A stretch of DNA of 64,000 bases from Deltaproteobacteria bacterium (GCA_034670305.1 JAXMNT010000013.1:64001-128000), one strand, 5' to 3'; numbered from the stretch's first letter, positions 24,822-46,600 are shown. Program-made: numbers and translations. The notes: generated by a model not told the origin, from the letters alone.

Positions 24822-24938
24822 GGGGTCTCCTCGAGGTGGGTCACGTGGGCGCTCGGCTCTCCAACCAGCGGAAGCTGCGTGGAACCTACGCCGAGACTTG
24901 CAGCCATCCACTTCCGTCATGGGGTTGCCCGGCGGCGC

Positions 24939-25817
24939 ATGTGGGGCAACAACCTCGAGGTGAGTACGTTCGACGAACTGGTGGGGCGGCTGCCTCGGCC
25001 CGAGGAGGTGGACGCGGCGGTGCACCCGCGGGTGCTGACCTTGCCGGCGGACGACGGGGATGCGTTCGACTTCGCGTTCGTCGCGTGGCGTGATCCGGGC
25101 GGCGCCAAAGCGCTGCACGAAGCGCTCGGCCCAATCGTGGAAGCGACACTCCTCGCCGAACTCTCCAACCCGGAACCGGGCCCGGAGCGATTGAACGCGC
25201 TGCACTTCGTCTCGGTCGAACCCATCGACGAACTGCAACGGGCACTGCAGGCGTTCGGGTTCGTGCGGAGCGAGCCGTCGAGCGAACTGGCCGCATGCAT
25301 CCGCGGCGAAGCCTCCGCCTGTGGGCTGGCGGTGCCGGACGCGTTCGGGAGTGTCTGGACTGCGACCGTGGGTGGTGTCGATGCGTCCGCCATCACCGAG
25401 GAGTTGGCCAAGTTCGAGTGGCCGGCGTTCGGGGTGCAACCGGGCGCGCTGGCGCGGCTGCTCGGCACGACGATCGACGCGCCGCCGACGCCGCTCGGGC
25501 TCGACCAGGTGGAAGCAAAACTCGTCGACCGCACGCCCGGTGTGGTTCGGTGGATCGAGCCCCGGGCGTTCCTCGCGCTCTGCGACTTCGTCGCGGTGGT
25601 GTTGGCGCGGGCGTTCGAGAAGACCGTGCAATGGGCGCCAAGCGACACCGACGAAGACGGGTTCGTCTCTCCGCCGCTCGTGCGGATGAAGGGAACCGAG
25701 GGTTGGGTGCACCTGCCGCTCGGCCTGCACGTGCTGCGCTGGTGCGTGATGCCGCTCTTGCCGGGCGAAGAGGTCCCTCCGCTGAGCCACTGGGCCGAAG
25801 ATCAAAGCCGGGTCTAG
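24939..25817 (+). CDS. Hypothetical protein
   Basis: Long ORF with natural amino-acid composition in a gene-sized gap; no motif recognised. Confidence 0.6.
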   Translation: MWGNNLEVSTFDELVGRLPRPEEVDAAVHPRVLTLPADDGDAFDFAFVAWRDPGGAKALHEALGPIVEATLLAELSNPEPGPERLNALHFVSVEPIDELQRALQAFGFVRSEPSSELAACIRGEASACGLAVPDAFGSVWTATVGGVDASAITEELAKFEWPAFGVQPGALARLLGTTIDAPPTPLGLDQVEAKLVDRTPGVVRWIEPRAFLALCDFVAVVLARAFEKTVQWAPSDTDEDGFVSPPLVRMKGTEGWVHLPLGLHVLRWCVMPLLPGEEVPPLSHWAEDQSRV

Positions 25818-25868
25818 GAGTCTGCGGGTCGGGATCGCTTGGGGTCGCAAGCGCGCTATGCTCCCGCT

Positions 25869-26090
25869 GTGTCGTACGACTTCGTTCCCGATGTGCGCGA
25901 TGGATTGACGCGGGCCGAGCGGGTGATCCTCTGGCAGCTCCACGAACTGCAGAAGGAACTGGGGGGTGAGGAGGGGTTTGCCGAAGCGCGGCACGTGCCC
26001 ACCGCCATGCTCTACGGCCGCGTCGTCGAACACGTGAACCTCTCGGTGCAAGCGTTTCAGCGCATCCTCCAGCGACTGACCGGGCATTGA
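25869..26090 (+). CDS. Small protein with a GyrA/ParC N-terminal-like motif
   Basis: YDFVPDVRDGLTRAERVILWQLHEL resembles GyrA LPDVRDGLKPVHRRILYAM. Confidence 0.65.
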   Translation: MSYDFVPDVRDGLTRAERVILWQLHELQKELGGEEGFAEARHVPTAMLYGRVVEHVNLSVQAFQRILQRLTGH

Positions 26091-26866
26091 GCGATCGCGC
26101 GACGTGTTGTGCGCAGTGTCGCTGGGTCGGGCACGGCTCGGGGTGCCCGTTCGATCCCGAACATCAGGTGTTCGACGTCGACGACCCCCATCTGCTCGAA
26201 CGGGTCTGGTCGGCGAAGCCCACGGACATGCCCATCTGGTCGGTGGTCGTGCTCTGTGGGGTGATGGCGTTGTTCGGAGCCGTGGCGAGGCATCCGATCG
26301 CGATCGTGGCGATCTACGTCGGGGCGCTCGTGCTGCTGGTGGTGGCGATTCGAGCGCGGCGACGCGGGGTCCTGCGCCCGGCCGCTGCGTTGCCCACACG
26401 AACCGACGACGACCAGCGCCTCACGGGCGTCGCGTCGGGAGACCCGAGCACGATCGGGCCGTTTCTGGGCGCGTTGGCGGGGCTCGTGGTGTTCGAATCC
26501 GAAGCTGGCGTCACCATGGTTCACGGCACGACACCGAACGGGTTTTGCGTCGATGGGCCCGACGGGGCGGCCGTGGCCGTTCCGCCGGGTCCGGTCTGGA
26601 TCGACGGTGGCGAACGGCATCTGCTCTCCCAGGCAGAGATCGCGGACATCCGAAGCTCGCTCGAGCCCACGGCCCGCTTGGGCACAGGTCTGCCGGCGCG
26701 CCGAGGGTTCTGCCGTCTCATCCGGCCAGGCGACACGATCGAGGTCCACGGAACACTCGAACGTGTCCCGACCCAGGATGACAAGGCGTATCGGGAGAAC
26801 GCCGGTGGCGCGCGGGAACCGGTCGAGTCCGTGGTGCGGCTGCGGATCGTGTCGCTCCGGCCCTGA
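26087..26866 (+). CDS. Hypothetical membrane protein
   Basis: N-terminal CxxC...C, two hydrophobic segments; 4-bp overlap with the previous ORF. Confidence 0.55.
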   Translation: MSDRATCCAQCRWVGHGSGCPFDPEHQVFDVDDPHLLERVWSAKPTDMPIWSVVVLCGVMALFGAVARHPIAIVAIYVGALVLLVVAIRARRRGVLRPAAALPTRTDDDQRLTGVASGDPSTIGPFLGALAGLVVFESEAGVTMVHGTTPNGFCVDGPDGAAVAVPPGPVWIDGGERHLLSQAEIADIRSSLEPTARLGTGLPARRGFCRLIRPGDTIEVHGTLERVPTQDDKAYRENAGGAREPVESVVRLRIVSLRP

Positions 26867-28596: not shown

Positions 28597-30474
28597 TCAG
28601 GTGCCGGCGCGGTGGATGTATGCGAGCACCGCCGCGAGCACCATCTCACTCGACGTGGCGACCCCGAACAGCTGCAGCGCGTGATCCGGATAGACAATGC
28701 ACGCGGTCCCCGAGATCACACTCAGGATCGCGATCCAGGCGATCCAGCGGAGGAGCACCACCGAGCCCACGAACAGGGCGGCCGCGAGCACGAAGCAATC
28801 GGTCGCGAACACCTGGGCGACGTCTGGTTCGATCTGAAAGAACTCGAGGCCCACGAACACCGACAGCCGGTGCAACAGCATCACCCCCATCATCGCCAGG
28901 AGCATGAACACCGCCTGGCGGTTGAACGTGCTCACCCACAAACGTTTGCGAAGCACGACGGTGCCGCCGATCATGATGAGGGTCGACACAATCGGTATGG
29001 CGAGCATGTGGGTGATCGTCACGTCGTCTTGGTCGAGGACGAAGCTGTAGGCCCCGATCGCGATCCCGACGAGCGACAACCCGAAGAGCGCGAACGCCCG
29101 CGAACCGGACGCCACCCTCGGGTCGTGCTCCCGTGCGAGGCGCTCCAGTTCGGCCTGTCGTTCACGCTGGGACTGGAGCAGTCCTTCGAGTTCTCGAAGG
29201 GTGTCGAGGGCCAGGGTGTTGTCGGGCCACTGGGCGATGGACTGTTCGAGGCCGAACTGGGCCGCGGCGAGGTGCTGGTCGACCTCGCGCCGCGCATCGA
29301 CGTCGAGCGCCTCCTCCGTTTCGAGCAGCCGAGACGCCTGTTCGAAACGCAGGCCCGCTTCGGTCGCCAGCGCGGCCGCGTCGCGGTGCCGCACGAACGC
29401 CTTCACCGCATCCCGGAACGCACCCACGTCCGCAGGGCGCGCGTCCGGGTCGACGTGGCAGGCCTGGTTCGCGAGACGGGCCAGCTCGCCCGGCACCTCT
29501 TCGTCGAACTCGAACGGCTTCGACTGCCGCGCGCTCAACAGGGCCGCGATGGCGGTCTGCGCGTCGTGCCGGGGTCGACCGGTCAGGACCTCATGCAACA
29601 CCGCGCCGAGCAGGTACACGTCGGTGCGCTCGTCGATGCGCCCACCGCCCACCATCTCGGGGGCCATGTAGTTCGGGGTGCCGCAGAGTCGGGTTTCGGT
29701 CTCTCCCACCAAACCTGCGACGCCCCAATCGGCGAGGTACACGTCGCCAAACTTCCCGATGAGCACGTTCTCCGGCTTGATGTCTCGGTGCACGACGCCG
29801 TGCTGGTGCGCGAAGCGCAGCGCCTGGCACACCTGCAAGACGATCTGCAGGTGCCCGAGCAGGCGGTTGTCGGGCTCCCCGTCCCAGCCCTCCCACCCCT
29901 CGTGGGCGGGATCCTGGAGCAGGGCATCCCAGGTGCTCCCCTCGATGCGTTTCATCACCAACGCGGGGCGGCCCGCTTCGTCGAGCCCGATGGAGTGCAC
30001 GGGGACGATGGCCGGATGTTCGAGTCGACCGGTGACGCGACCTTCCACGAGCAGCGCGTCGCGCGCGGACTCGGGGGCACCGTCTTTGGTGGTCTTCACG
30101 GCGACTTCTCGGCCGAGCGAATGCTGCTTCGCGAGGAGCACCCGCCCCATGCCGCCCTCCCCGATCAGTCCTGTCACCTCGAGATCGGCGGAGGCGCCTC
30201 GCGGTGCCGCAGGCGGACTCATCGAGCCGCGCAGGTCGAGCGAGAGACGGGGCAACGGCCGTTGCGTCTGGGTGGCCGCGGGCTCGACGTCGGCCGGGAG
30301 CGTCAGGTCCGCGGAAGCTGCCGGATCGGCCCCTGGCGCGGCCGGCCGGACCACGGACTGCGGCGGTAGGATCGTGGCGCCCGGTGGCAAGAGCGCCGTG
30401 TCCGCGGCCCCGAGCGCGTGGAGCTGGGCCTGCAGACGCTCCACTCCGTCGGGCACATCCTCCATCGACGCCAT
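28597..30474 (-). CDS. Ser/Thr protein kinase with a C-terminal multi-TM domain
   Basis: GEGGMG, VAVK, HRDIKPEN, DWG, GTPNYMAPE; about 5 hydrophobic helices at the C-terminus. Confidence 0.92.
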   Translation of the reverse strand: MASMEDVPDGVERLQAQLHALGAADTALLPPGATILPPQSVVRPAAPGADPAASADLTLPADVEPAATQTQRPLPRLSLDLRGSMSPPAAPRGASADLEVTGLIGEGGMGRVLLAKQHSLGREVAVKTTKDGAPESARDALLVEGRVTGRLEHPAIVPVHSIGLDEAGRPALVMKRIEGSTWDALLQDPAHEGWEGWDGEPDNRLLGHLQIVLQVCQALRFAHQHGVVHRDIKPENVLIGKFGDVYLADWGVAGLVGETETRLCGTPNYMAPEMVGGGRIDERTDVYLLGAVLHEVLTGRPRHDAQTAIAALLSARQSKPFEFDEEVPGELARLANQACHVDPDARPADVGAFRDAVKAFVRHRDAAALATEAGLRFEQASRLLETEEALDVDARREVDQHLAAAQFGLEQSIAQWPDNTLALDTLRELEGLLQSQRERQAELERLAREHDPRVASGSRAFALFGLSLVGIAIGAYSFVLDQDDVTITHMLAIPIVSTLIMIGGTVVLRKRLWVSTFNRQAVFMLLAMMGVMLLHRLSVFVGLEFFQIEPDVAQVFATDCFVLAAALFVGSVVLLRWIAWIAILSVISGTACIVYPDHALQLFGVATSSEMVLAAVLAYIHRAGT

Positions 30475-30580
30475 GCTCGCCCATCGGGCCCGCGACGTAC
30501 ACCGGATCGACTCCGAGAACGGCCTCGGATCTCTGGAAAACCCCGAGCGATGTCACTCAGCCTTGATACGGTAGCGGCCC

Positions 30581-33500
30581 TTGGATCGCCCCGCGAACAG
30601 TCCGCCGACCGGCCCGCTGCATCAAGTGCAGCGGAGGCTCCAGGCCGAGGAGCTCATTCGATTGCGTCGGCCGGACGAGCAGCGGCGGTACGTGGCGAGT
30701 CAGCGGGCGGGCCGCATCGATCCGAACCCACATCAAATCGACGCGGTGGTGTTCGCACTCCGCCGCATTCCGGAGGGTGGCTGCATTCTCGCGGACGAGG
30801 TCGGACTCGGAAAGACGATCGAAGCCGGGCTGGTGATCGCCCAGATGCTCGCCGAGGGCGCGCGGCGGATCCTGCTCATCACGCCGAAGCCGCTGGTCGG
30901 CCAGTGGCGCGAAGAACTCTACGCGCTCTTCGACATCGTGGTGCGCGAAGGCAAAGCGGAGCGGAACGCGTTCGACGGAGACGGAGTGTTCCTGGTCGGG
31001 CGTGAGTCGGCCGGCACCAAGACCATGTCCGGTCTTCTGGAGCACAGCGCGCCGTTCGACTTGTGCGTGGTGGACGAAGCGCACGAGCTCTTCGCGGGCA
31101 TCTACAAACGGTACGCCGCGGACGGGTCCTACAAAGACGACGCAGGCCACGCGAAGGTGGCGCACCGAGTGCGGGAAGTGCTCGGCGCGACGCCGGTGCT
31201 GCTCTTGACCGCGACGCCTATCCAGAACTCCCTCGCCGAACTCTGGGGACTGATCCAGTACGTCGATCCCTCCGGCACGTTGCTGGGCGACCTCCCGACC
31301 TTTCGAGAGCTCTTCACCGGCCAGGACGACCGCTCCCTCGCGCCGGGTGCGGACCACGAGCTGCGCCGGCGGGTGCAGCGGGTCGTGCAACGCACGCTCC
31401 GCCGGCAAGCGCAGGAGTTCATGGAGCAGCCGTTCGTGGGCCGGCGCGCGCGCACGTTCGAATACAAGATGACCGAGGAAGAGAAGGTCATCTACGACGA
31501 CGTGACCCGGTACTTGCTCAGCCCGAACCTGCAGGCGTTCCGCGGCACGCACCGCAGCCTTCTGCTGCTCGGGTTTCACCGGCGCATGGCGTCGAGCAAA
31601 GCCGCGCTCGCGCGCAGCCTGAAGAATGTCGAGAACCGGCTTCAGCGCATGCTCACCGCGGCGCAGGCCGGGCGGTTCGACGAGGGGGAAGAGACCGCCC
31701 GCGTGTTCGTCGACGACCTCGATGGCGACGACGAGATCGTGCTCGCGCTCAGCGCCGAGTCGGAGGACGAAGGCAAGGTCGACCCCGAAGCGGTGCGGCT
31801 CGAACTCGAGCGGGTGACCGACCTGCGCGCCCGCACCGAAGCGCTCGCGGTGGACAGCAAAGCCCAGGCGTTGATCCAGGCAGTCCGGGCGGTGCTCGAA
31901 CGGGGCCAGTCGTCCAAAGGCGGTCCGGCGGCGGGGTCGGGCAAACTCGTGCTCTTCACCGAGTCCCTCACCACCCAGGACTACCTGCGGGACCTGCTGG
32001 TGGAGTCCGGGCTCGTGACCGAAGGCGAGATCACCCTCTTCCGCGGGGACAACCGCGGGGCCCGCGCCAAAGAAGCGCTCGCGCGGTGGGAAAAGGAAGT
32101 CGAGACCGCCGCCGGCACCACGCCGCCGAGCCGAGACACCGCGACGCGACTCGCGCTGGTGCACGAGTTCCGAACGCGCAGCCGGGTGTTCATCTCGACC
32201 GAAGCCGGCGCCAAGGGTCTGAACTTGCAGTTCTGCGACACGCTCGTGAACTACGACCTGCCGTGGAACCCGCAGCGGATCGAACAGCGCATCGGGCGAT
32301 GTCACCGGTACGGACAGACCCGCGACGTCACGGTCATCAACTTCCTCGCGAGCGACAACGAAGCGCAACAGCTCACCTACGAGATCCTCAGCCGCAAGCT
32401 CGAGCTCTTCGGCACCGTGCTCGGCGCGTCCGACGTCATTCTCCACCAGCCGAGTGGCGAGACGAGCGAGTCGGTCCTCTCCTCGCTCTCGACCGACTTC
32501 GAGAAGCAGCTCGGCGCCATCTACCGGCGTGCGCGCTCGCTCGAGGAGATCACCGCGGAGCTCCGCAAGTTGCGCGACGAGACCGAAGCGAAGCGCACCA
32601 GCTTCGAAGCCGAGCACGCGCGCACCTCGCAGCTGATTCAGAGCCGATTCGACGAGTCGGTGCGCTCCGCGTTCCGGAAGATCGCCGAGCAGACCCCGGT
32701 GGAACTCGCCGCGCTCGACCGCGACCTCGAAGCGGTGCTGAACGCGTTCCTGAACGCGGTGGGCGCGCCGCACGAACGAGAAGAAGCCGCCGGCGCGGTG
32801 CGGTATCGAATCGGTGCCTGCGCGGCCCTTCCCGGCGCGCTCCGGGAAGGCACCGACGTGTGGATCGGCCAACCCAAGGCAGCCCACCGGCCACCAGCCC
32901 TGCACCTGGCGCATCCATTGGTGCGCGCCGCCATCGACGAGGCGCGCGAGGCCACCCAGAGCACGCAGCACGTGGAGCTCGCCGCGTCGGAGTCGGGCCC
33001 GCTCGCAGGCGCGCGCGGTTGGGTGCGGGTCTCGAAGGTCCGCCGCGACGGACTCGAGCCGGTCGAACAACTCGTCGCGGTGGGCACCCGCTTTGTGGGC
33101 GATGCGGTGGAGCCACTCGACCCGGAGACGATCGACGCACTCCTCTCGGGTGAGCTGCGCTCCGTCGCGGGGGACGCCGCGACCGACGCCCCCTCCGAGG
33201 CCCTTGAAGACGCGCTCGAAGAAGCGATGTTCCTGGCAGAGGCGGATCTCGAAGCCGCGGAGGCGACCCACTTCGAAGAGCGGCTGGAACGGCTGGAGCG
33301 TTTTGTCGAAGACCGGCTGCTCGTGCTCTCGCGACGCCAGCACGAGCTGACCAAACAACGCACCGAAGCCGAACATGCACGGGAGGCGGCCCTCGCACCG
33401 GCCACCCGCGAGCGGGCCGAGGAACGACTGCGGCGGGTTGCCGAACGTTTGGAGCAGATCGAGGTGGAGGTCGACCGGCTGCGGCGCCGGGAAGACGAGC

Positions 33501-33595
33501 GGTACACCGCGCTGAAAGAGGCGCTCTACCTCCGACGGTTCGCACCGCCCACCATCGAGACGCTGTTCGAGATGTCCTGGAGGGCCGCGCCGTGA
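30581..33595 (+). CDS. SNF2/RapA-family helicase with a C-terminal coiled coil
   Basis: NPHQ, LADEVGLGKT, VVDEAH, LLTATPIQN, STEAGAKGLNLQ, NYDLPWNPQRIEQRIGRCHRYGQ. Confidence 0.95.
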   Translation: MDRPANSPPTGPLHQVQRRLQAEELIRLRRPDEQRRYVASQRAGRIDPNPHQIDAVVFALRRIPEGGCILADEVGLGKTIEAGLVIAQMLAEGARRILLITPKPLVGQWREELYALFDIVVREGKAERNAFDGDGVFLVGRESAGTKTMSGLLEHSAPFDLCVVDEAHELFAGIYKRYAADGSYKDDAGHAKVAHRVREVLGATPVLLLTATPIQNSLAELWGLIQYVDPSGTLLGDLPTFRELFTGQDDRSLAPGADHELRRRVQRVVQRTLRRQAQEFMEQPFVGRRARTFEYKMTEEEKVIYDDVTRYLLSPNLQAFRGTHRSLLLLGFHRRMASSKAALARSLKNVENRLQRMLTAAQAGRFDEGEETARVFVDDLDGDDEIVLALSAESEDEGKVDPEAVRLELERVTDLRARTEALAVDSKAQALIQAVRAVLERGQSSKGGPAAGSGKLVLFTESLTTQDYLRDLLVESGLVTEGEITLFRGDNRGARAKEALARWEKEVETAAGTTPPSRDTATRLALVHEFRTRSRVFISTEAGAKGLNLQFCDTLVNYDLPWNPQRIEQRIGRCHRYGQTRDVTVINFLASDNEAQQLTYEILSRKLELFGTVLGASDVILHQPSGETSESVLSSLSTDFEKQLGAIYRRARSLEEITAELRKLRDETEAKRTSFEAEHARTSQLIQSRFDESVRSAFRKIAEQTPVELAALDRDLEAVLNAFLNAVGAPHEREEAAGAVRYRIGACAALPGALREGTDVWIGQPKAAHRPPALHLAHPLVRAAIDEAREATQSTQHVELAASESGPLAGARGWVRVSKVRRDGLEPVEQLVAVGTRFVGDAVEPLDPETIDALLSGELRSVAGDAATDAPSEALEDALEEAMFLAEADLEAAEATHFEERLERLERFVEDRLLVLSRRQHELTKQRTEAEHAREAALAPATRERAEERLRRVAERLEQIEVEVDRLRRREDERYTALKEALYLRRFAPPTIETLFEMSWRAAP

Positions 33596-34839
33596 CCCTC
33601 AAGGTCCTTCACACCGCGGACTGGCACCTGGGACGCGCGTTCCCCTCGTTCGACCGCGCGGACGCGGAGACGCTCTCGCGCGCGCGTTTCGAAGTCGTGG
33701 AGCGGATCTTCGGGCTCGCGAAGCGCCACCAGGTCGACGCGGTGTTGTGTGCGGGCGACCTCTTCGACGAACCGCGGCCGGACCGCGCCTGGTACCACCG
33801 CCTGGCGCAGATCCTGAAGACCCACGGCACGGGCGTGCCGGTCGTCTTGTTGCCGGGCAACCACGATCCGCTGGTGCCGGGAAGCGTCTGGCATCCGGAC
33901 CACGAGATGCGCCGGCTGCTCCCACCCTTCGCCCACGTGGTCGATCGCGGCGACTTCGAGCTTGCGCTCGGCGACCACGCGGTCGTGCTGGCCCGCCCGT
34001 GTACGAGCAAGTCCGGGCAGCGGGACAACGCGCTCGCGCTGCCGGACCGCGCGCCGGGCGACGAGCGCATCCGCATCGGCATGGCGCACGGATCGAGCTT
34101 CGACGAGCGCGGGTGGGAGACCAACTTCCCCATCGCGAAGGACGCCGCCATCCGCCGCGGGCTCGACTACCTCGCGATCGGCGACACCCACACGTTCCGG
34201 GAGGTGCCCCCCGACGCGGAGGTCCCCACCGTCTATCCAAGCGCGCCGGAGGCGACCAACTTCGGCGAGAAGGGCACCGGGTTCGTCGCGTCCGTCTTCT
34301 TCAAGCGGCATGGCCGGCGGGCGATCGTCCGCAAGGAGCGGGTGGCGCGTTGGCGGTGGCGGCACGAGCGGATCACGTCGATCGAAGCGCTGCGCACCCT
34401 GGCCTCGGAAGAGCTCGCGCACACGGTGCTGCGGCTCGAGCTGGCGATGACCGCCAATGCGGCCGAGCACGACGAAGTGGACGCCATCGTGCTGGCGCTC
34501 AAGGGCAACGAAGCGGCGCACGGACGCGCTGGGGTGCTGCAACTTCAACTCGCAGAGATGGAGCTGCGCACCGACGACATCGAACGCTACTTCGAAGGGC
34601 TCCCGGATGTGTTGCGCGCGACGGCGTCCAAGCTGCGCGAGCTCGAACAGGGCGAGTTCCCGACCCGCGCCCGCCGCGCGCTCTACCACCTGTACCGCCT
34701 CACCCGGGGCCTCGGCGACGGTGCGCGCGACGCCGACGCACCTGGACACGACGCGCCCGGACACGACGCGCCCGGACACGACGCGCCCGGACACGACGCG
34801 CCCGCCACCGAGTCCAATGGATCGGAGAGCGACGCGTGA
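33592..34839 (+). CDS. Mre11/SbcD/YhaO-like metallophosphoesterase nuclease
   Basis: HTADWHLG, AGDLFD, PGNHD, AHGS, LAIGDTH, YPSAPE; GTGA overlap with the helicase. Confidence 0.92.
   Translation: MTLKVLHTADWHLGRAFPSFDRADAETLSRARFEVVERIFGLAKRHQVDAVLCAGDLFDEPRPDRAWYHRLAQILKTHGTGVPVVLLPGNHDPLVPGSVWHPDHEMRRLLPPFAHVVDRGDFELALGDHAVVLARPCTSKSGQRDNALALPDRAPGDERIRIGMAHGSSFDERGWETNFPIAKDAAIRRGLDYLAIGDTHTFREVPPDAEVPTVYPSAPEATNFGEKGTGFVASVFFKRHGRRAIVRKERVARWRWRHERITSIEALRTLASEELAHTVLRLELAMTANAAEHDEVDAIVLALKGNEAAHGRAGVLQLQLAEMELRTDDIERYFEGLPDVLRATASKLRELEQGEFPTRARRALYHLYRLTRGLGDGARDADAPGHDAPGHDAPGHDAPGHDAPATESNGSESDA
34735..34803 (+). repeat. 15-bp tandem repeat (GACGCGCCCGGACAC, about 4.6 units) encoding DAPGH at the nuclease C-terminus
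   Basis: Read directly. Confidence 0.92.
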
Positions 34840-37800
34840 AGCTGATCAAGCTCACCTGCTCCGATTTCGCGCGCATCGCGTACGCGTCGGTGCCGCTCGG
34901 TCCCGGACTGAACGTGCTCTACGGGCCGAACGACCTCGGCAAGTCGACGCTCGCCAAGGCACTCCGGGCGGTGCTTCTGTTGCCGCACACATCCCGCGCG
35001 ATCGAAGCATGGACCCCATGGAACCGGGAGGCCTCGCCGTGGGTGGAGCTCACCTTCCGTGGCGACGACGGTCGCGTGTGGCGCGTGCGCAAGGAGTACG
35101 CGCGAAGCGGCGGCACCTCGCTGCTGACCGCGAGCACCGACGGAGAGACCTTCACCGAAGAGGCCAAAGGCCGCCATGTGGACGGAGTGCTTCGCGAACT
35201 CTTGCGTTGGGGCATTCCGGGACCGGGCGGCAAGGGCAGTCCGCGCGGCATGCCCCAGAGTTTTCTCGCGCAGGCGTTGCTCGGGGAACAAGGCGACGCG
35301 GCGCTCGCGCTCGCAGCCTCACTTACCGGCGACGCGGACGAGAGCGGGCGCGATCGCCTCACAGAAGCCCTCGAAGCGCTGGCCGTCGACGAGCGGTTTC
35401 GGTCGGTGCTCGACGCTGCGGACCAGAAGGTGTCTCTGGCGTACAGTCCGAGTGGCAAGCCGAGCAGCGCGCGGCAATCGCCGTTTCGAGTCGCCAAGGA
35501 CGAGGTGCTCGAAGCGCGGCGGGCGCTCGAAATCGCGACCGAGGCACTCGACCGGACCACCGACGCGACTCGGCAAGGCAGCCTGCTCGAGGCCGACCTG
35601 CTCGCGGCGACCGATGCCCGAGACGAACTTCGACGGAGGCTCTCGGCGGCACGGACGCGCGCGGACGTGGCAGCCGCCCGGGCGAGGGCGGCGGAGGTGC
35701 ATGCAGACCGCGCCGCGCAACTCGAACGGGTCCAAGCTGCCCGGGCGCGCGCCGAGACGAGCGCTCTCGAAAAGCAGGAAGCGGAGTCCGGCGCGACCGA
35801 GGCGGCGTTGGCGCTGGAGCGGGCACGCGCCGAAGAGGCGACCCAGCTGGCGCACCTGGCGAGCGCGCGCGACGTGCTGCGGACCGCGGGCGCGGACGAC
35901 CCACAGAGCGCGCGCAGCCAAGCGCGTGCGTCGCTGGAACGCGAACTCGGGGCGGCACGCCGGGCCCGCGATGAAGCGCGAGAAGCCGCCCGATCGCTCG
36001 CGACGCTGACCGCGGCGCGCGAGGCGCTGGCGCAACACGAAACCAACGTCGGTGCACTCGGCGCGCGGCACGCTTCCGAGCAGGCGGAACTCGAGCGGGT
36101 GGTGGCCGAGTTGCGCGACTCCAAGATCGCGCTGGCCGACCTCGCCGTGCACGACGCAGAGGCGGCGCTGGCATCGGTGGCATCAGACGAAGCGGCCATC
36201 GCGGAGCTCCGCGCCGATGCGGAACGCCAGGAGACACAAGCCACCGAACTCGAGGCCGAACTCGAGGCACTGCCGAGCGACGCGGCCCTCGCGGCACTTG
36301 CGTCGTTGCACGACGAGCTTCGATTCGCTCGCGAGGTTCTGAACGTGGGTCTGTCGGTGGCGCTGAGGAAACCGGCCGGCGTGACCTTGGATGCGCAAAC
36401 CGACGACGCCGCATGCGTGGTGGATCTGAGCACCGAGCAGGTCGAGCTCGAAGCGAACCGCACCGTCTCCATCAAAGCGTCTCTCGCGACTGGTGAGCCC
36501 GTGCTCGAGCTGCGGGTGTTCGCGGGTGCTGCGGATGCACGGGCCCGCGCCGCCGAGCTCGAGGCGCGCTGGCAAGACGAACAAGCGGTGCTCGGCGGCG
36601 TGGAACTCAGCGCATGTCGGCAATCGCGTGCGTCGCTCGCCGCGTCGATCGAAACGCATCGTCGGGACGCCGCGCACGCGCGAGAGCGCGCGACCGAGAC
36701 CGCCGCGCGACTGGGATCGAAGCGGGATGCGGAGCAGGCGCTTGCCCAGCGACGCGCGGAGCGGGAGGCGCTGGGATCCTCCCCGAGTGCGTTCGAAGGC
36801 GCCCAAGACCGCGGCGCACTGATCCGCGAACGGGACGCGCTGCAGGAGGACGTGGCCAAGCGCCGCGCGGCGGTGGATGCCCTCGCCGAGCGCCTGGCCG
36901 AGCTCGCTGCGCGCACCGCGGGGCTGAAGGCCGCCGCCGAAGCGGCTGCGCACGGCGCCACCGCTGGGGCGGAGACGCTGCCCTCCCGGGAGGCGGAGGT
37001 GCGGACGCTCGAGTCGCGCTTGGAGGACGCGCAACAAGAAGGGGACCGGACGCTCCAGCAAGCAGAGCACGCGGTGGATGTGGCCCGGACGAAGGCCGCC
37101 GAGGCGACCACTGCACGCCAAGGAGCGGAGGCTGCGGTGGAGGCGGCGCGGGATCGGCTGGCGCAGGCCCGCACCGAAGCGGCCGCCGCGGCGGGCGCAC
37201 TGGAGAACCTGGACGAGACCGCGGCAGAGGCCGCGATGCAGGAGGCCATCCAGACACTCGATGCTCGAACGCGTGCGCTCGAAGCCCTGCCCGCAGGCGG
37301 GTCGGTCGAGTCCCTCGAAGCCGAACTGAGCGCCGCGGAGATCCGACTTCGGGAAGCCGAAGCCGCCGCACAGAAACACGAGGGTCGGCTCGAAGAGGTT
37401 GGAGGCGTCGTGGCGGAGGAACGGCACCGGGTGGCCGAAGCCGCCTACGACGCGGCACTCGAACGACGTCAAGACGTGGAGACGGAGTTCGGCGCGTGGA
37501 AGTTGCTGGCCGACACGTTGCGCGAGGCGGAGCGCGATGTGGGCCACCACCTCGGCGAGAGCCTCTCCGGTCCCGTCTCGCAAGAGATGCGGCGGCTGCT
37601 CGACCGAGTCGACGCGACCACCCAGTACGAAGGGCTGTCCCTCGATGCGGATCTGGGCGGGGTCGGGGTGCGGCTCGGAGGCGAAGTTCGGTCGTTCACC
37701 CAGCTCTCGGTCGGTACCCAGGAGCAGATCGCCGCACTCTTCCGCCTGAGCATCGCCACGCACCTCGGCACGCCGATCGTGCTGGACGACCACCTGACCC

Positions 37801-37994
37801 ACACCGACCCCGTGCGGGTGCGGTGGTTCCGAGATCTGCTGCGGGCCGAAGCCCACCGAACCCAGATCGTGGTGCTCACCTGCCACCCGCTCGACTACCT
37901 GGACGAGGCGGATCTGCCGGAAGAAGGCCGCCCCTTCCGAGACCGCGCCGCAGGGCTCGTGCGGGCCGTCGACCTCACTCAGATCATCGAGTGA
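34836..37994 (+). CDS. Rad50/SbcC/YhaN-like SMC-type ATPase
   Basis: GLNVLYGPNDLGKST (Walker A), long Ala/Glu coiled coils, LSVGTQEQ signature, PIVLDD (Walker B), VLTCH; GTGA overlap. Confidence 0.92.
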   Translation: MKLIKLTCSDFARIAYASVPLGPGLNVLYGPNDLGKSTLAKALRAVLLLPHTSRAIEAWTPWNREASPWVELTFRGDDGRVWRVRKEYARSGGTSLLTASTDGETFTEEAKGRHVDGVLRELLRWGIPGPGGKGSPRGMPQSFLAQALLGEQGDAALALAASLTGDADESGRDRLTEALEALAVDERFRSVLDAADQKVSLAYSPSGKPSSARQSPFRVAKDEVLEARRALEIATEALDRTTDATRQGSLLEADLLAATDARDELRRRLSAARTRADVAAARARAAEVHADRAAQLERVQAARARAETSALEKQEAESGATEAALALERARAEEATQLAHLASARDVLRTAGADDPQSARSQARASLERELGAARRARDEAREAARSLATLTAAREALAQHETNVGALGARHASEQAELERVVAELRDSKIALADLAVHDAEAALASVASDEAAIAELRADAERQETQATELEAELEALPSDAALAALASLHDELRFAREVLNVGLSVALRKPAGVTLDAQTDDAACVVDLSTEQVELEANRTVSIKASLATGEPVLELRVFAGAADARARAAELEARWQDEQAVLGGVELSACRQSRASLAASIETHRRDAAHARERATETAARLGSKRDAEQALAQRRAEREALGSSPSAFEGAQDRGALIRERDALQEDVAKRRAAVDALAERLAELAARTAGLKAAAEAAAHGATAGAETLPSREAEVRTLESRLEDAQQEGDRTLQQAEHAVDVARTKAAEATTARQGAEAAVEAARDRLAQARTEAAAAAGALENLDETAAEAAMQEAIQTLDARTRALEALPAGGSVESLEAELSAAEIRLREAEAAAQKHEGRLEEVGGVVAEERHRVAEAAYDAALERRQDVETEFGAWKLLADTLREAERDVGHHLGESLSGPVSQEMRRLLDRVDATTQYEGLSLDADLGGVGVRLGGEVRSFTQLSVGTQEQIAALFRLSIATHLGTPIVLDDHLTHTDPVRVRWFRDLLRAEAHRTQIVVLTCHPLDYLDEADLPEEGRPFRDRAAGLVRAVDLTQIIE

Positions 37995-38019
37995 TCCGGC
38001 GCCGCGTCCCCCGATGGGC

Positions 38020-38039
38020 CACTCGACTCGCGTCGAGTG
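38020..38039. terminator. Hairpin between convergent genes
   Basis: CACTCGAC-TCGC-GTCGAGTG. Confidence 0.35.
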
Positions 38040-38057
38040 CGGCCCACGAGTTCGTGA

Positions 38058-40364
38058 TCAGCGCGAGACGGACAGGTTGTAGACGCCCTGGGTGCAGGTG
38101 GTCACGGGCATCACCCGCCGCACCCGAATGAGGACTGTGGACGGCCACGACACGAGGTGGGGACCGGTGTACGCGTTGATGCCGGAGGATGCGTCGTCGA
38201 CGAAGGTGTACGAGACGATGTCCGTCGCGGCGCCCGTCGCCACCGGAGCCGTGGTTCCGGTGCAGTTCGTGAAGACATCGAAGCGGAAGTTGGGTGCGCT
38301 GGGCCCCGTGAGGCTGAGCTGAATGTTTCCGTTGACCGGCCCGCGGGACGTGCTCGGGAAGTTCACCGTGAACCATGCTTCGGATCCGTCGGCAATCACG
38401 CCGGTCGTCGAGGCGGCCCCACCCGCGGCGATCGTGCCGAGCGGACTCGCGGCGGCGCAGACCGGGCTGCCCGCGGTTCCGGCCGAACACTCACAGCCAT
38501 CGGAGTAGGTGCCGTTCACGTCGAACTGACCCGCGTTGCACTCGAACGAGCACATGCCGGCAGCGCACATGTAGTTGGTCGCGCCCGGTGCAGCCGGGCA
38601 GAGCGCGGCGCCGGTTCCGTCGTCCGGCGTGCCGTCGCAATCGTCGTCGAGCAGGTTGCAGGACTCGAGCACGGGCGCACCAGGGGTGCACATGTTCGGG
38701 ACGCCGCCCGAACATCGCTGCACGGTGCGGCTGCACTCGCCGACGCCGCACGTCACGGTGTCGGCCGCGTCGTCCAGATCACGGCACATGCCCGGCATCA
38801 TGCCGGTGCAGGTGCCGGCCACTGGGGCTTGGCAGGTGTTGTTGCAGTCGATCTGGAGTGGGCCCGTCGGCTGCATGGGGCACTGGGTCGCCGGCGAGAT
38901 GCAGGCGCGCGCGCCGTTGCAGGTGGCCACGGTGTCGGTGACGTCCTGGCGCGAGAAGCACGTGTCGGTGCCGCCAGAGAAGCCGCTGTAGTACCCGCTG
39001 CAGGAGTAGCCGAGACATTCGTTGTCGATGTCGGCCGTCGGGGGCACCGGTGCACAGGAGCCTTCGAGGCCGGGCAGGTCGCACGCCTCGCAGGTGCCGC
39101 TGCACATGGAGTTGCAGCACCGGCCGTCGACGCAGAACAGGTCGGACTGACAGTCGGGGGTGCGTCCGCAGATACCGCCCGGGGGCCGGTCGGGGACGCA
39201 GAAGCCACCTTCGCAGTGGGCCGCGTCGATGCACTCGCCGTCGCCGATGCAGCTGGTCGGGCAATCCGGCTCCATCTGATCGCTCGTGCCATCACAGAAG
39301 ACCGGGTCGTAGGGCGCGCAGTTCAACGCTTCGACGGAGCTGGTACAGGCCGAGTCGTCCTCGATGCCTTCGATGGTCTCGCACCGGAACTCTGCGTTGC
39401 ATTGGGTCTCCCCTCGGGTGCCCTGGCAGGTCTCGGCGTCGTCGCAGAGCGTGGTCGGCATGCCGCCGCCCGGGCAGTCCGCCGTCTCGAAGCAGCAGGT
39501 GCCGCCCGAACAACAGAACCCGTTGTCGCAGTGCCCGGCGCTGCAGTCGGAATCTTCGTCGCACATGCCGCCGTCCGGCACGTCGGGCTCGCACAGGCCG
39601 CCGTCGCAGTGCGCCGGTTCGATGCAGAGCGCGTCGGAGTCCACGCCCTCGTCACTGCAGCTCGCAGCACAGGTGGTGCCCATCTCGCCGCCCTCGGCGC
39701 AGGTGAAGAGCATGCAATCGACGACGTCTCCGTCCGCGCACATCGCATCCGTGCAGGTCGCCCCGCTGACGCCGGTGTAGGTGCCGTCGCCGTCGTCGTC
39801 GCATCGCCCGGACACGCAATCGGTGGGGGGATCATCAACGGAACCGTCGCAGTCCTCGTCGATGCCGTTGCAGATCTCCATCATCGCTGGGTTGCGGAGA
39901 GGATCTTCGTCGTCGCAGTCGGGTCCGAGACATCCGATGCCCTGACCGTGTTCGTCTTCGTCCTCGTCGATGCAGCACGGACCACCCGAGGGAATGCAAA
40001 TGGGGTTGCCGTCCGTGCCAGCCGTCAGGTCGACCACGCAGTTGAAGCCGGTCGGACAGTTCGGGATGTCTGGGTTGCATGAAACGACGCATGCTTGCTC
40101 GCCACTGCTGAGCGTCGCGCAGAAGTTGCTCGCCCCACACTCGACGTGTTCGGTGCAGGTCTCACAGAGTCCGACCGTTTCGAACCCGGCGTCCGAGCCG
40201 GCGTCGGGGTCGGGCGGGGTGTCGGGCGGACCGGCGTCGGGGAGGCCGCTGTCGCCGAGCCCAGCGTCTTCGCCTTCACCGGCATCCCCTTCGGGGGGGC
40301 TTACGCCGCCAGCGCACCCGGCCAAGAGCAAGATACCCGCGAGTGCGACCCGAACACCATTCAT
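38058..40364 (-). CDS. Large Cys-rich lipoprotein with putative metal-binding repeats
   Basis: LLAGC lipobox; DCDDEDP..EICNGIDEDCDG, ESCNLLDDDCDG; many Cys repeats. Confidence 0.85.
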   Translation of the reverse strand: MNGVRVALAGILLLAGCAGGVSPPEGDAGEGEDAGLGDSGLPDAGPPDTPPDPDAGSDAGFETVGLCETCTEHVECGASNFCATLSSGEQACVVSCNPDIPNCPTGFNCVVDLTAGTDGNPICIPSGGPCCIDEDEDEHGQGIGCLGPDCDDEDPLRNPAMMEICNGIDEDCDGSVDDPPTDCVSGRCDDDGDGTYTGVSGATCTDAMCADGDVVDCMLFTCAEGGEMGTTCAASCSDEGVDSDALCIEPAHCDGGLCEPDVPDGGMCDEDSDCSAGHCDNGFCCSGGTCCFETADCPGGGMPTTLCDDAETCQGTRGETQCNAEFRCETIEGIEDDSACTSSVEALNCAPYDPVFCDGTSDQMEPDCPTSCIGDGECIDAAHCEGGFCVPDRPPGGICGRTPDCQSDLFCVDGRCCNSMCSGTCEACDLPGLEGSCAPVPPTADIDNECLGYSCSGYYSGFSGGTDTCFSRQDVTDTVATCNGARACISPATQCPMQPTGPLQIDCNNTCQAPVAGTCTGMMPGMCRDLDDAADTVTCGVGECSRTVQRCSGGVPNMCTPGAPVLESCNLLDDDCDGTPDDGTGAALCPAAPGATNYMCAAGMCSFECNAGQFDVNGTYSDGCECSAGTAGSPVCAAASPLGTIAAGGAASTTGVIADGSEAWFTVNFPSTSRGPVNGNIQLSLTGPSAPNFRFDVFTNCTGTTAPVATGAATDIVSYTFVDDASSGINAYTGPHLVSWPSTVLIRVRRVMPVTTCTQGVYNLSVSR

Positions 40365-40515
40365 GGACACGAGTGTAGCTGGGTTTGACCCCTTCGCGGA
40401 AGGGGACCCCCTCGATCCTCGTGTTCACCGGGGTGTGGCGAGGCTGGCCACGCACGAGACCCCGTGGAATCCCACCGGAAAGCGACGCTTGCCCACCCCC
40501 GAAAAACTGCCCGGG

Positions 40516-43609: not shown

Positions 43610-46600
43610 CTAGGAGGACGGCGGGGGGGGCGGGTCGCTCGTCTCGCGCATGAGCGACGCATCGGTGAACGCCCGGAACCCATCGGCATCCCCGGCCTCT
43701 GCGGCCATGCGGGCCGCGTCCTCGTACTGAAGACGCGCTTCGGTGGAGCGGCGCATCGCCTCGTACACCCGGCCCAGGTTGGCCGCGGCACGCGCTTCGA
43801 GCGCGGGCGCGTCGGCGTCTTCCGCAAGCTTGCGCGCGCCCTTCGCGTGCTCCTCCGCCGCCTCGAAGTCGCCGGTGACTTCGAGGGCGTGGGCCAGGCG
43901 CAGCTGGCTCGTCGCGCGGACGAGCGACGACGCACCCATCTCCGTCTGGACTTCGAGGGCCCGTCGGAAGGCGTTGGACGCCGCGGTGGCATCTCCGCCC
44001 TGCAGGCGGAGGTCCCCGAGCGCGACCTGAAGCGCGCCCTCGACCTCCGGCTCGACGCCAGCGCAGATCTCCAGCGCCTGCCCGTAGTGGCGCATCGCGT
44101 CCCGGTTTCGATCCCGCAGGCTCGCGATGGTGCCCAGCACCAAGTGCATGCGGGCCCGCGCCGAATCGTACGGATTGGTCAGGTCGAGCACCTCGCGCAC
44201 CACTCCGTCCGCGTGCGCGAGCTCGCCGGTCTTCGCGAGCGCGAGCCCGAGCTTCCGGCTGAAGGTCACCGTGGCGGTGTCCATGACGGTGTCGCCGCTC
44301 TCGAGGGTCTCGCGACGCGCCAGTTCGACCGCCCGCTGAAAAGCGAGGACCGCGGTCGCGGGATCGCCGCGCGTCATGGCGACGTCGCCCATGCGCTCGA
44401 GCGTCATCAGCGTGCGCATCGGTTCGTCCGCGCGGTACGCGTGTTCCGCGCGGACTTCGAGCGGCGCGCTGCGCTCGGAGTACGCCGCGAGGATCTTGGT
44501 GTGGAGATCTTTTCGAGCCGCCGCTGGAATGAAGGCCTCCACCAACTCGGCGACGAAGCGGTGCCCCGCTTCGATCGTGGTCCCGGTGATCTGGACCAGG
44601 TTCGACTCGCGCAACTCTTCCAGCCCCTCGACGTCGCGCGCCGCAGCGACTTCGCGGAAGAGGCCGAGATCGCAGCGACCGCCGAAGGCGGAGATGACCT
44701 GGAGCGCGCGCTGCGCCCGCAACGTGAGCCGCTCGACCCGCTGCGCGACGGCATCGGCCAGACGTGGCGGGAGGGTGGGATCCAGCGTCAGCGTGTCGTG
44801 TTCGCGGATCTGATCCAGGTAGAGCGGGAGGAGCCGACGGCCGACGGCCTCCGGGGCGCCTTCGACCGGAGGTTCACCGAGGACCTCCGACGCCTGTTCG
44901 AGCGTGAGTCCGAGAAGTGCGACCTGGTCGGTGACGTCGGTGTGGCCGTGTAGATCCGCCGTCAACAGAAGCACGGAGTCCCGGTCGAGCGCATCGGGGA
45001 GCCGGTCGATCACCTCGCGGGTGAGGCCGTCGCACCGGGAGTAGTCGTCGATCATCAACACGACCCGCTCGACCTGTTCGCGGCTGCTCGCGATGCGCAC
45101 CGCGGTGGCGAGCGCTTCACACACGGCGCCGGCGCGCGAAGGGTGTTCGCTGCCGATGAGCCCCTTCGGCTCGCCGAGTTCACTGAGCCCCGCCCGCGTC
45201 ATCGGATCCGCGAACATGCCCGCGTCGCGCGCGACCGCGGAGAGTTCGTCCTCCGCGACCTGGAGCAGGCCCGCGACGATGGTGCGAATCGGTGTGTAGG
45301 GAACCGGCGCGTAGAACGGAAGCGGCCCGGCGCCCGCCACGAGGTCCCCCGCCTCCGCAAACCGGCCCGCGGCTTCGTGCATCAAGCGCGTCTTGCCGAC
45401 GCCGTGTTCGCCCACGATCTCGGCTCGGAGGAAACGTCCGGTGGCCTCGCGGCGGAGCGCGTCGAGACGGGCGAGTTCTTCGTCGCGTCCCACCAAGGGA
45501 CCCCGGTCATCGGTCGGTGGGTAGAAGGATCGGATCGGCTTCTTCGGTGTCGGCGAAGTCGGACGCCGAGAGTCGTCTCCGATGCGCGTGCCGCAGGAAC
45601 CGCAGAACTTCATGTTCGTGGGGTTCGTCGCACTGCAGGCGGGACAGGTCCGGGTCGTGCCGTCGCGGTTGGCGGCGAGCGCGTCCGCAGCCCGGCGCAG
45701 CTCCGCGGCCATCTCGGCGGCGGATTGGTATCGATCGTCGGCGCGTTTCGCGAGCGCCTTGATCGCGATGTCCGCCAAGACGTCCGGAACGCCGCGGTGC
45801 GGCGCGGTGACGCGGGGATCCGGAATCGGGTCGTTGATGTGCCGGAGCACGACCTTGGTCGGCGTCTCCGCTTCAAAGGGCAGCTCGTCCGTGAGCAGCT
45901 CGTAGAGCACGACGCCGACCGCGTAGAGATCGCCGCGGCCGTCGATGGTCTCGCCTTTGCCCTGCTCCGGCGACATGTAGTCGGGCGTGCCACACACGAG
46001 CCCGGGGCGGGTGATCGAGGTCCCGCCACCGCCCACGATGGTGGCCAGGCCGAAGTCCACCACCTTCACCAGGTCTTGCCCGGTGCGGAGCTTGCGAACG
46101 ATGACGTTCTCGGGCTTCAGGTCTCGGTGAACGATGTCGAGCGCGTGCGCTTCGCCAAGCGCGTCGAGCATGCCGACCAGCACCGAGCAGATGCGGGGGA
46201 ACGGGAGGGGCCCTTCCTCGTGCATCACCATCGCCAGGTCCTTGCCGCGCAAGAACTCCATCGCGAGGTACAGGATGCCGTCGTCGGTTCGGCCGAAGTC
46301 GATGACGCTGACGCTGTTGGGATGGTTCAGGCGGCTGGAGGCACGCGCTTCGGTGTAGAAGCGCGCCACGGTCTGTTCGTCGCCCAGCAGGTGGGGGTGA
46401 ATGACCTTGATCGCGACGGTGCGCCCAAGCGTGGTCTGCTCGGCGCGGTAGACCCGCCCCATGCCGCCGACGCCGACGATCTCCTGGAGCACGTAGTTGC
46501 CGCCGATGACCCGGCCGACGAGGGGGTCGGCGTTGCCCGAGGAGCCCTCGGAGAACAGAGCGGCGCCACAGGTGGCACAGAAGCGGTCGTCGGACTGCGC

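Follow-up and report, generated by a model that had tools for sequence, protein, structure and literature searches.

The region analysed here is a 64,000 nt stretch of DNA from a Deltaproteobacteria bacterium (GCA_034670305.1, JAXMNT010000013.1:64001-128000), referred to below as the window, with a guanine-plus-cytosine (GC) content of 0.69. It contains a cassette of three genes, coding for an SNF2-type translocase, an SbcD/Mre11-type nuclease and a Rad50/SbcC-like ABC ATPase, and the comparisons presented below support these three genes being one conserved, co-inherited unit. The window proteins were read from open reading frames (ORFs), Pfam and PADLOC, with the following features at and around the cassette (positions counted from the first nucleotide of the window):

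30581-33595, +: SNF2 translocase gene (P0001), TTG start, 1004 amino acids (aa), RapA/DrmD-type
33592-34839, +: SbcD/Mre11-type metallophosphoesterase gene (P0002), GTG start, 415 aa
34836-37994, +: Rad50/SbcC-like ABC ATPase gene (P0003), GTG start, 1052 aa
33592-33595, +: GTGA in which the SNF2 stop and the nuclease start overlap, read from the sequence
34836-34839, +: GTGA in which the nuclease stop and the ATPase start overlap, read from the sequence
33197-33550, +: SNF2 residues 873-990, C-terminal coiled-coil hairpin plus tail, nuclease contact predicted by complex prediction
34734-34804, +: tandem repeat of a 15-bp unit (4.7 copies) that codes for the DAPGH tail of P0002
36153-36755, +: central domain of P0003 (residues 440-640), modelled as a beta sandwich at the coiled-coil tip, where a zinc hook or hinge would be
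28597-30474, -: Ser/Thr kinase gene, upstream and divergent (Pkinase 2.7e-39)
38058-40370, -: Cys-rich gene, downstream and convergent (MopE motif 5e-09)

The cassette proteins

The original prediction, made from the sequence alone, described three co-oriented genes joined by GTGA overlaps and bordered by a divergent kinase gene and a convergent Cys-rich gene; both overlaps occur as it had claimed, and Pfam finds both bordering genes. Third-position GC is 0.86 in the SNF2 ORF and 0.90 in the nuclease ORF, as expected of real genes. The GTG start assigned to P0003 is internal to a longer ORF (33747-37994). Scanning of positions 30200-38300 returned no promoter-like sites, and four terminator-like sites versus 4.4 expected.

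Pfam recognises SNF2-rel_dom (9.8e-21) and Helicase_C (3.2e-15) in P0001, whose ATPase core spans approximately residues 45-610 and is followed by a RapA-like C-terminal region (611-1004). Motifs GLGKT (75-79), DEAH (165-168), TATP (210-213) and motif VI (565-576) are invariant in an alignment of 15 SNF2 sequences, and the top PADLOC families for this protein are defence helicases, i.e., DrmD (1.9e-128), BrxH (6.3e-59), HmaA and DpdE. The C-terminal 394 residues were modelled, with a predicted local distance difference test (pLDDT) value of 82.5, as a helical bundle together with a beta domain and a long coiled-coil hairpin, the helices of which are residues 872-968 (262-358 of the C-terminal model). 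This model resembles the C-terminal part of RapA in a Foldseek search (E value 4.2e-06, with low template-modelling scores). Additionally, tblastn identified a second tier of SNF2 paralogues, 30-35% identical to P0001, in 14 loci (L203-L216). A type III Mod-like adenine methylase gene (PDB 6k0w_B, 2.7e-49) adjoins the SNF2 gene in seven of them and a gene for a Res-like protein of 911 aa in nine, and neither the nuclease nor the ATPase gene lies beside any of the 14. These loci are SNF2-Mod-Res-like operons of the same phylum.

P0002 is a calcineurin-type phosphoesterase (Metallophos, 6.1e-18) in which D10, H12, D56, D59, N90, H91, D92, H166, D198 and H200 are invariant among 17 nuclease sequences. 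Its PDB matches in a sequence search are SbcD/Mre11 proteins, confined to residues 2-95, and PADLOC returned no match for it. The C-terminal tail of DAPGH repeats is strain-specific, being found in none of the 16 aligned homologues. Peptides like this repeat match eight other places in the genome of the window.

The ATPase P0003 has a split ABC head and two long coiled-coil arms; Pfam assigns it to AAA_23 (6.7e-06), at 27.3 bits versus a cut-off of 27, and PADLOC matches are limited to its N-terminal P-loop. Its Walker A motif is GPNDLGKST, with K36 kept in at least 90% of 14 aligned ATPase sequences (the first-listed reading in this alignment, from L037, starts downstream of Walker A), and Q152, S958, G960, T961 and Q964 are invariant, within a signature LSVGTQEQ for the latter part. 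Walker B reads VLDD (hhLDD) instead of hhhhDE, with D984 and D985 invariant in all 14 sequences, and the H-loop position is occupied by histidine or arginine. The claim that the catalytic motifs of the three proteins are intact thus holds for the SNF2 protein and the nuclease, where they are invariant, but only in part for the ATPase, because of these Walker B and H-loop variations.

There is no CxxC zinc hook in P0003, the only cysteines of which are at positions 8, 527, 594 and 1016, nor any invariant cysteine in the ATPase arm in the 14-sequence alignment. The central domain was modelled with a pLDDT of 93.2 as six strands between helices, and its residues P480 and D523 are invariant in the same alignment. 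A PDB sequence search with P0003 returned nothing at E <= 0.01, and Foldseek found no PDB match for the central domain at E <= 0.001; a wider structure list (VIA) was filled with helical hairpins, with entries for the SMC/MukB hinge (Z 9.0-9.7) scoring no higher than unrelated rows. The nearest ESM Atlas clusters to P0003 carry AAA_23 and AAA_27. Searched with a profile of the central domain, 1.84 billion cluster representatives yielded 444 matches at E <= 0.001, most of them 1050-1100 aa in length; 337 remained at 1e-10 and 67 at 1e-30. Scanning of 14 proteins, 12 of them longer ATPase variants (1209-1393 aa), revealed no fused extra domains in these variants.

Conservation, spread and decay of the cassette

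Searches with the nuclease and SNF2 proteins covered the best 120 clusters each, all with at least 52% identity. Among the SNF2 homologues is one of Sorangium sp. So ce448, with 55% identity. Defining related loci by a nuclease that matches P0002 over approximately 350 residues or more, and merging duplicate contigs (L013 with L031, and L018 with L044), we obtained 25 distinct loci: the window, L014-L017, L019, L020, L031-L044 and L199-L202. In 23 of the 25, the nuclease gene is immediately preceded, on its own strand, by a P0001-type SNF2 gene, and an ATPase gene follows the nuclease gene in 23 of the 24 testable loci, L035 being without it and L016 standing outside the count with a contig that ends within the nuclease gene. 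Since 23 of the 25 related loci share the same gene order, the triplet is far beyond chance, and the SNF2 gene proves to be syntenic with the nuclease-ATPase pair in other genomes, a point for which the original prediction had called for a neighbourhood survey. Examination in the reverse direction gave six SNF2 matches at E < 1e-250 in a 400-genome sample of the phylum, five of which abut a nuclease gene while the sixth is at a contig end. Clustering across 16 loci grouped the three cassette genes only, the flank genes differing between loci.

The two loci without a P0001-type SNF2 gene, L019 and L020, are from one genus. The SNF2 place is taken there by ORFs of 773 aa (L020:7197-9518, +) and 621 aa (L019:10246-12111, -), both of which overlap the nuclease start, have no Pfam match and no Walker A, and show a faint likeness to P0001 (E values 1e-05 and 2e-04, from a single comparison). 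They may be a decayed, non-enzymatic SNF2 remnant.

The complex of SNF2 residues 385-1004 with nuclease residues 1-375 was predicted with a score of 0.81, the best of three controls reaching 0.00. In calibration, 58 of 80 solved complexes attained this score, as did 2 of 110 mismatched pairs, counts that hold only roughly because custom alignments were used in the complex prediction. The runs share at least 78% of contacts, with a partner pLDDT of at least 84, and the predicted interface places SNF2 residues 873-921 and 968-990 against nuclease residues 1-47, 234-253 and 307-310. The model thus supports the SNF2 protein binding the nuclease by its C-terminal coiled coil. PDB searches returned the SNF2 and Mre11-type families separately, and to our knowledge there is no solved complex between an SNF2 and an Mre11-type protein. 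Together with the conservation and co-inheritance of the three genes, the prediction agrees with the dedicated unit that had been proposed for this locus.

A reading in which the SNF2 protein is a mere neighbour, acting independently of the nuclease-ATPase pair, could draw on the existence of relatives of the pair without SNF2 (L021-L025, L045, L046, and those on Rhizobium and Vitreoscilla plasmids). It is very unlikely, however, given that the order and overlaps of the genes are kept across five phyla, that the SNF2 and nuclease trees agree, that all six close SNF2 orthologues of the 400-genome sample lie at a nuclease gene or a contig end, and that the predicted complex passed its test, in which every control scored 0.00.

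The distribution of the cassette is patchy. A strong nuclease homologue (E <= 1e-74) is present in 8 of the 40 nearest relatives, a close one in 5 of 400 other sampled genomes of the same phylum, and none among 300 other genomes of the order of a gammaproteobacterial carrier (G429); these last two counts speak against the vertically inherited core that the original prediction had named as an alternative. Cassette loci span Myxococcota, Acidobacteriota, Pseudomonadota, Gemmatimonadota and Latescibacterota, and the carriers that could be named are Polyangiaceae, Kofleriaceae, Myxococcaceae, two Acidobacteriota, Pseudomonadales, Longimicrobiales and Latescibacterota. Trees were built for the nuclease (21 rows) and for SNF2 (17 rows, omitting the partial L033 and the fragmented L043). 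In both, Pseudomonadota, Gemmatimonadota, Acidobacteriota and Latescibacterota are intermingled in a single short-branched clade supported at 100/100, and the family of the window forms its own clade in the SNF2 tree. The same four-phylum clade in both trees indicates that the cassette crosses phyla as a unit. It is a rare accessory module that spreads horizontally as a unit.

Some copies are decaying, as genes under fluctuating selection do. In L042 (10001-15608), the ATPase gene carries a frameshift and an insertion of an ISAZ013-type transposase gene, and the nuclease gene is shortened; in L035 (11207-13260), genes for DUF6642 and AAA_16 proteins stand in place of the ATPase gene; and the SNF2 gene of L043 is split into five pieces.

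Viral contigs yielded no close relative (0 of 43 loci); the best matches there have 22-41% identity over their best segment, and those spanning more than approximately 160 residues stay at or below 29%. Phage records gave one distant match. Matches occurred in 131 plasmid records, all below 60% identity, the 25 listed being 30-34% identical. Nuclease-ATPase pairs without SNF2, with around 30% identity, were seen in L111:8004-11752, L112:7995-11833, L046:8195-9916 and L022:3874-6039; those on Rhizobium and Vitreoscilla plasmids are annotated as 'DNA repair exonuclease' and 'AAA family ATPase', and a VWA-domain gene adjoins two distant chromosomal pairs. Among metagenome contigs there was one close relative, on a contig of 2.2 kb that therefore gives no neighbourhood information. 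The sequencing runs listed with the cassette are four DNA runs from one study, with no RNA run among those listed.

These data also bear on whether a mobile element, and not the host, benefits from the cassette, for instance through end processing, recombination or inter-element competition during the transfer of an integrative element. Besides the cross-phylum transfer as a unit, this would fit the integrase, PIN-DUF433 and ParB_N genes beside the cassette in L043, the three transposase genes around or inside that of L042 and the rve_3 integrase gene downstream of that in L034. We nevertheless consider such a role improbable: apart from the cassette genes themselves the flanks are not conserved, no conserved integrase or replication gene accompanies the cassette, and no close form was found on viral contigs (0 of 43 loci) or plasmids.

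Genomic context and possible role

Flanks of approximately 6.5 kb were annotated for 18 loci, the window and 17 others, the rest being short contigs (L015, L016, L017, L033 and L037) and the pair-only L019 and L020. The PADLOC scan of the window flanks omitted two kinase genes, and matches of Ser/Thr kinases to PD-T4-6 models were not counted as defence because they are generic in the phylum. Known defence genes adjoin the cassette in four of these 18 loci (L199, L036, L043 and L201). In L199:90-6315 (+), the SNF2 start is preceded, in the same orientation, by genes for PglZ (1.2e-233), BrxD (2.1e-163) and an Lhr-like helicase carrying an RNase D-like exonuclease end, a layout resembling what we take to be the tail of a type 2 BREX locus. 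In the other three (L036:1256-7036, -; L043:3979-6699, -; L201:537-6272, +), the cassette is abutted by the gene for a PDC-S37/Hhe helicase-nuclease, a protein of 1900 aa with DUF4011, AAA_11, AAA_12 and MTES_1575, which is divergent from the SNF2 gene in two loci and convergent with the ATPase gene in one.

Our favoured reading, to which we assign a probability of about one half, is that the three proteins form one translocase-nuclease-ATPase machine that destroys incoming foreign DNA from phages or plasmids. It is an even bet, likewise, that the cassette represents an uncatalogued anti-phage or anti-plasmid system of new architecture, that is, methylase-independent restriction in which a DrmD-type SNF2 protein is hard-wired by its C-terminal coiled coil to a hook-less SbcEF-type nuclease clamp; it would follow jointly, at the same odds, that one SNF2 lineage has been combined with two kinds of partner, methylase/Res modules in one case and an Mre11-Rad50-type effector in the other. 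What the data establish is the structure of the genes, their motifs and co-inheritance, the rarity and horizontal transfer of the cassette and the predicted SNF2-nuclease interface; the joining of the ATPase to the complex, the substrates and the role in defence are inferred.

In the proposed mechanism, the SbcF/Mre11-type nuclease would pair with the hook-less, SbcE-like ATPase of the Rad50 family, and the RapA/DrmD-type double-strand DNA translocase would be tethered to the nuclease through its C-terminal coiled coil. The ATPase-nuclease pair would clamp DNA ends, or DNA blocked by structures or proteins, as SbcCD and Mre11-Rad50 do, and the SNF2 motor would draw DNA through the complex or remove bound proteins, keeping the nuclease cutting. 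The two aspartates of Walker B suggest slow ATP turnover and, in turn, a long-lived clamped state. Foreign DNA could be attacked in this way without a methylation partner, self being told from non-self by free or unusual DNA ends.

The defence-type kin of the SNF2 protein, the mobility, rarity and decay of the cassette and the defence neighbours in 4 of 18 loci support a role in defence, as judged from genomic data. A canonical SbcD above cut-off coexists with the cassette in two of five carrier genomes, and this coexistence supports the cassette being non-redundant with canonical SbcD.

Several observations weigh against a role in defence. No recognised defence neighbour was found in 14 of the 18 annotated loci, the window included, and flanks are mostly housekeeping in appearance, with genes for Lon, a GlnS/GltX-type tRNA synthetase, MetH, LpxC, HrpA and cytochrome oxidase; the flanks of the window itself also look housekeeping. 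Within the family of the window, Lon and a Sir2-family gene lie near the cassette in L031 and L014, and the pair-only L019 and L020 cluster the same neighbours (by BLASTP only, their flanks being outside the Pfam scan), which points to some vertical inheritance. The genome of the window, 96% complete, gave no other SbcD-like match, so that the cassette could be its only SbcCD-type activity. To this are added the lack of close relatives on viral contigs, the plasmid relatives of only about 30% identity, without SNF2 in the two inspected, and an SNF2-nuclease interface that is a predicted model with the ATPase outside it. The reading is a computational one. Finally, the studied look-alike, SbcE-SbcF of B. 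subtilis, is a repair and competence factor (PMC2811018). The anti-phage or anti-plasmid role suggested in the original prediction is a candidate role, with defence neighbours in only 4 of 18 loci, housekeeping flanks in the window and an ATPase that is nearer in architecture to SbcE.

Many of these same observations would fit an accessory DNA-repair module, in which the same three-subunit machine acts as an SbcEF-type processor of breaks or hairpins, an alternative that we hold as possible and somewhat doubtful. As part of it, and just as tentatively, the SNF2 motor might clear nucleoid proteins, stalled polymerases or covalent adducts from DNA being resected, in a possible analogy to archaeal HerA-NurA with Mre11-Rad50 or to the eukaryotic SNF2 remodellers that aid end resection. 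The architecture of the pair, matching that described for SbcE-SbcF (CxxC is lacking, the central domain has a conserved proline, and an SbcD-like gene is adjacent), speaks for repair, as do the absence of any other SbcD-like match in the genome of the window, the housekeeping flanks in 14 of 18 loci and an independent sbcD-sbcC-SNF2 arrangement in 15 Enterococcus loci. Genes of DNA metabolism also occur in the flanks, namely for a family B polymerase (L034), a methylpurine glycosylase (L039), HrpA (L038) and RtcB (L044), and an AddA-like gene is found in the window. A cassette so rare (5 of 400 and 0 of 300 genomes), transferred across phyla and decaying in some copies is less expected of repair, although repair cassettes can likewise be patchy and horizontally transferred. 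The restriction-type kin of the SNF2 protein, the BREX or PDC-S37/Hhe genes beside the cassette in 4 of 18 loci and the canonical SbcD in two of five carriers also count against repair. Additionally, no SOS box (CTG-N10-CAG or Myxococcus-type LexA box) was found within 350 bases upstream of the SNF2 gene in the 17 of the 20 loci listed that held this stretch, which is a weak test; L032, L033 and L037 had only 23-28 upstream bases, and L018 and L044 are one contig.

If the favoured role in defence is true, the cassette would bring a new effector logic to bacterial immunity, a remodeller-type motor feeding an Mre11-Rad50-type nuclease without a DNA modification gene, and a bacterial model of the cooperation of SNF2 proteins with Mre11-Rad50-type complexes, in eukaryotes known only indirectly. 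If repair is true, the poorly understood SbcE-SbcF branch of the Rad50 family would gain a third subunit and a testable mechanism. On either reading, biochemistry and structure determination have concrete targets in the predicted interface (SNF2 873-990) and in the ATPase central domain, which is confidently modelled, lacks a structural match and may be a tip for dimerisation.

Three other ORFs of the window are worth recording. A protein of 1012 aa (43610-46648, -) has a STAND-like signalling architecture, in which zinc ribbons are joined with a Ser/Thr kinase domain, an NTPase of the AAA_16 family and TPR repeats. An ORF of 1721 aa (21234-26399, -) without Pfam or PADLOC match is a candidate gene. 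The AddA-like gene mentioned above (50476-54351, -), 12 kb downstream of the cassette, codes for a UvrD-type helicase of 1291 aa with a C-terminal PD-(D/E)XK nuclease domain.

Comparison with known systems

The original prediction could not match the cassette to a named system, and our searches led to the same result: PADLOC has no match for the nuclease and only N-terminal P-loop matches for the ATPase, and the DrmD scores of P0001 are far below the NCBIfam cut-offs. P0001 is like DrmD of DISARM in aligning nearly over its full length (NF038317 over residues 154-980, in addition to the PADLOC match at 1.9e-128) and in having a RapA-like C-terminal region, common to both. It scores, however, 432.8 versus 950 bits for NF038318 (DrmD_b) and 241.7 versus 610 for NF038317, and neither the DISARM partners DrmA, DrmB (DUF1998) and DrmC (PLD) nor a methylase were found by Pfam and PADLOC in the 18 annotated cassette loci; the SNF2 paralogues that do adjoin a methylase gene are only 30-35% identical to P0001 by tblastn. 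Likeness to RapA is restricted to the C-terminal fold, with 131.2 versus 576 bits for NF003426; the ATPase core of P0001 begins near residue 45, and the protein falls outside RapA, which is defined by that score and by N-terminal RNA-polymerase-binding domains. BREX and Zorya are represented by partial matches of P0001 only (BrxHII 1.5e-40, ZorD 5.1e-25), with no other genes of these systems in the window.

Lamassu and Wadjet combine a long coiled-coil ABC ATPase with a nuclease against foreign DNA, and are thus alike in possible working. The LmuB match of P0003, however, covers only residues 16-109 (1e-07) and the flanks contain no LmuA or LmuC; similarly, JetC is not among the 16 PADLOC families listed, and no JetA, JetB, JetC or JetD was found in the cassette proteins or flanks. 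Another likeness in possible working is that to the archaeal herA-mre11-rad50-nurA operon, which also encodes an Mre11-Rad50-type pair with a dedicated translocase. The archaeal motor is a hexameric HerA/FtsK-type ATPase accompanied by a second nuclease, NurA, whereas the motor of the cassette is an SNF2 enzyme and NurA is absent.

With SbcCD and Mre11-Rad50, the cassette shares a nuclease containing all Mre11 motifs I-V and, encoded next to it, an ABC ATPase whose head is split and whose long coiled coil is antiparallel. P0002, however, remains below the cut-offs for TIGR00619 (65.5 versus 77.65), NF008206 (48.2 versus 450) and TIGR00583 (mre11; 23.7 versus 434.6), lacks the SbcD_C domain and matches by sequence only over residues 2-95. 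P0003 differs in having a beta domain in place of the CxxC zinc hook, and a Walker B with DD, without the catalytic glutamate, next to the signature LSVGTQEQ, whereas the Enterococcus SbcC has CPVC, LSGGE and FIDEG. The cassette also adds an SNF2 subunit.

The closest studied relative of the cassette pair is, by analogy of architecture, SbcE-SbcF (YhaN-YhaO) of B. subtilis, which acts in double-strand break repair and competence (PMC2811018). In that text, SbcE is an SMC/Rad50-like protein without CxxC, in which a central domain with a conserved proline lies between two long heptad regions, and it is reported to bind the SbcD-like phosphoesterase encoded next to it (PMC2811018). P0003 and P0002 share with it, in architecture only, the hook-less ATPase, the central domain with a conserved proline and the adjacent SbcD-like gene. 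The accessible description reports no SNF2 gene in the yhaO-yhaN-yhaM locus (PMC2811018). AAA_27, of SbcE type, does not match P0003 at E <= 0.01, and matches weakly the N-terminus (2.4e-05 to 5.2e-04) of 3 of 14 relatives and of the Rhizobium pair-only ATPase. SbcE and P0003 were compared by the published description. Since the central-domain profile finds just 444 representatives, homology between the two central domains is at most putative. On this description, the ATPase is nearer in architecture to SbcE than to Wadjet JetC or Lamassu LmuB.

The statement in the original prediction that canonical SbcCD does not include an SNF2 subunit needs the caveat of 15 Enterococcus loci, of 66 other loci checked, in which a different SNF2 gene, coding for 1059 aa, directly follows a canonical pair of sbcD (SbcD_C present) and sbcC (CPVC hook present). 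In L051:10004-17436, for instance, sbcC ends at 14256 and the SNF2 gene begins at 14257; the same layout occurs in L053, L054, L056, L057, L060, L061, L071, L075, L081, L084-L086, L088 and L109. This row is like the cassette in that an SNF2 gene abuts an SbcCD-type pair, but its SbcD and SbcC are canonical, and its SNF2 protein is of the SWIM plus SNF2_assoc type, encoded downstream of the pair and only 27-37% identical to P0001 in the best local match (104-251 residues). The row is an independent SbcCD-SNF2 linkage.

No description of the cassette was found in the searchable literature, outside the scope of which a classification of ABC ATPases may describe the ATPase family. What is known is the Mre11-Rad50-type nuclease complex; what would be new is the SNF2 motor hard-wired to it.

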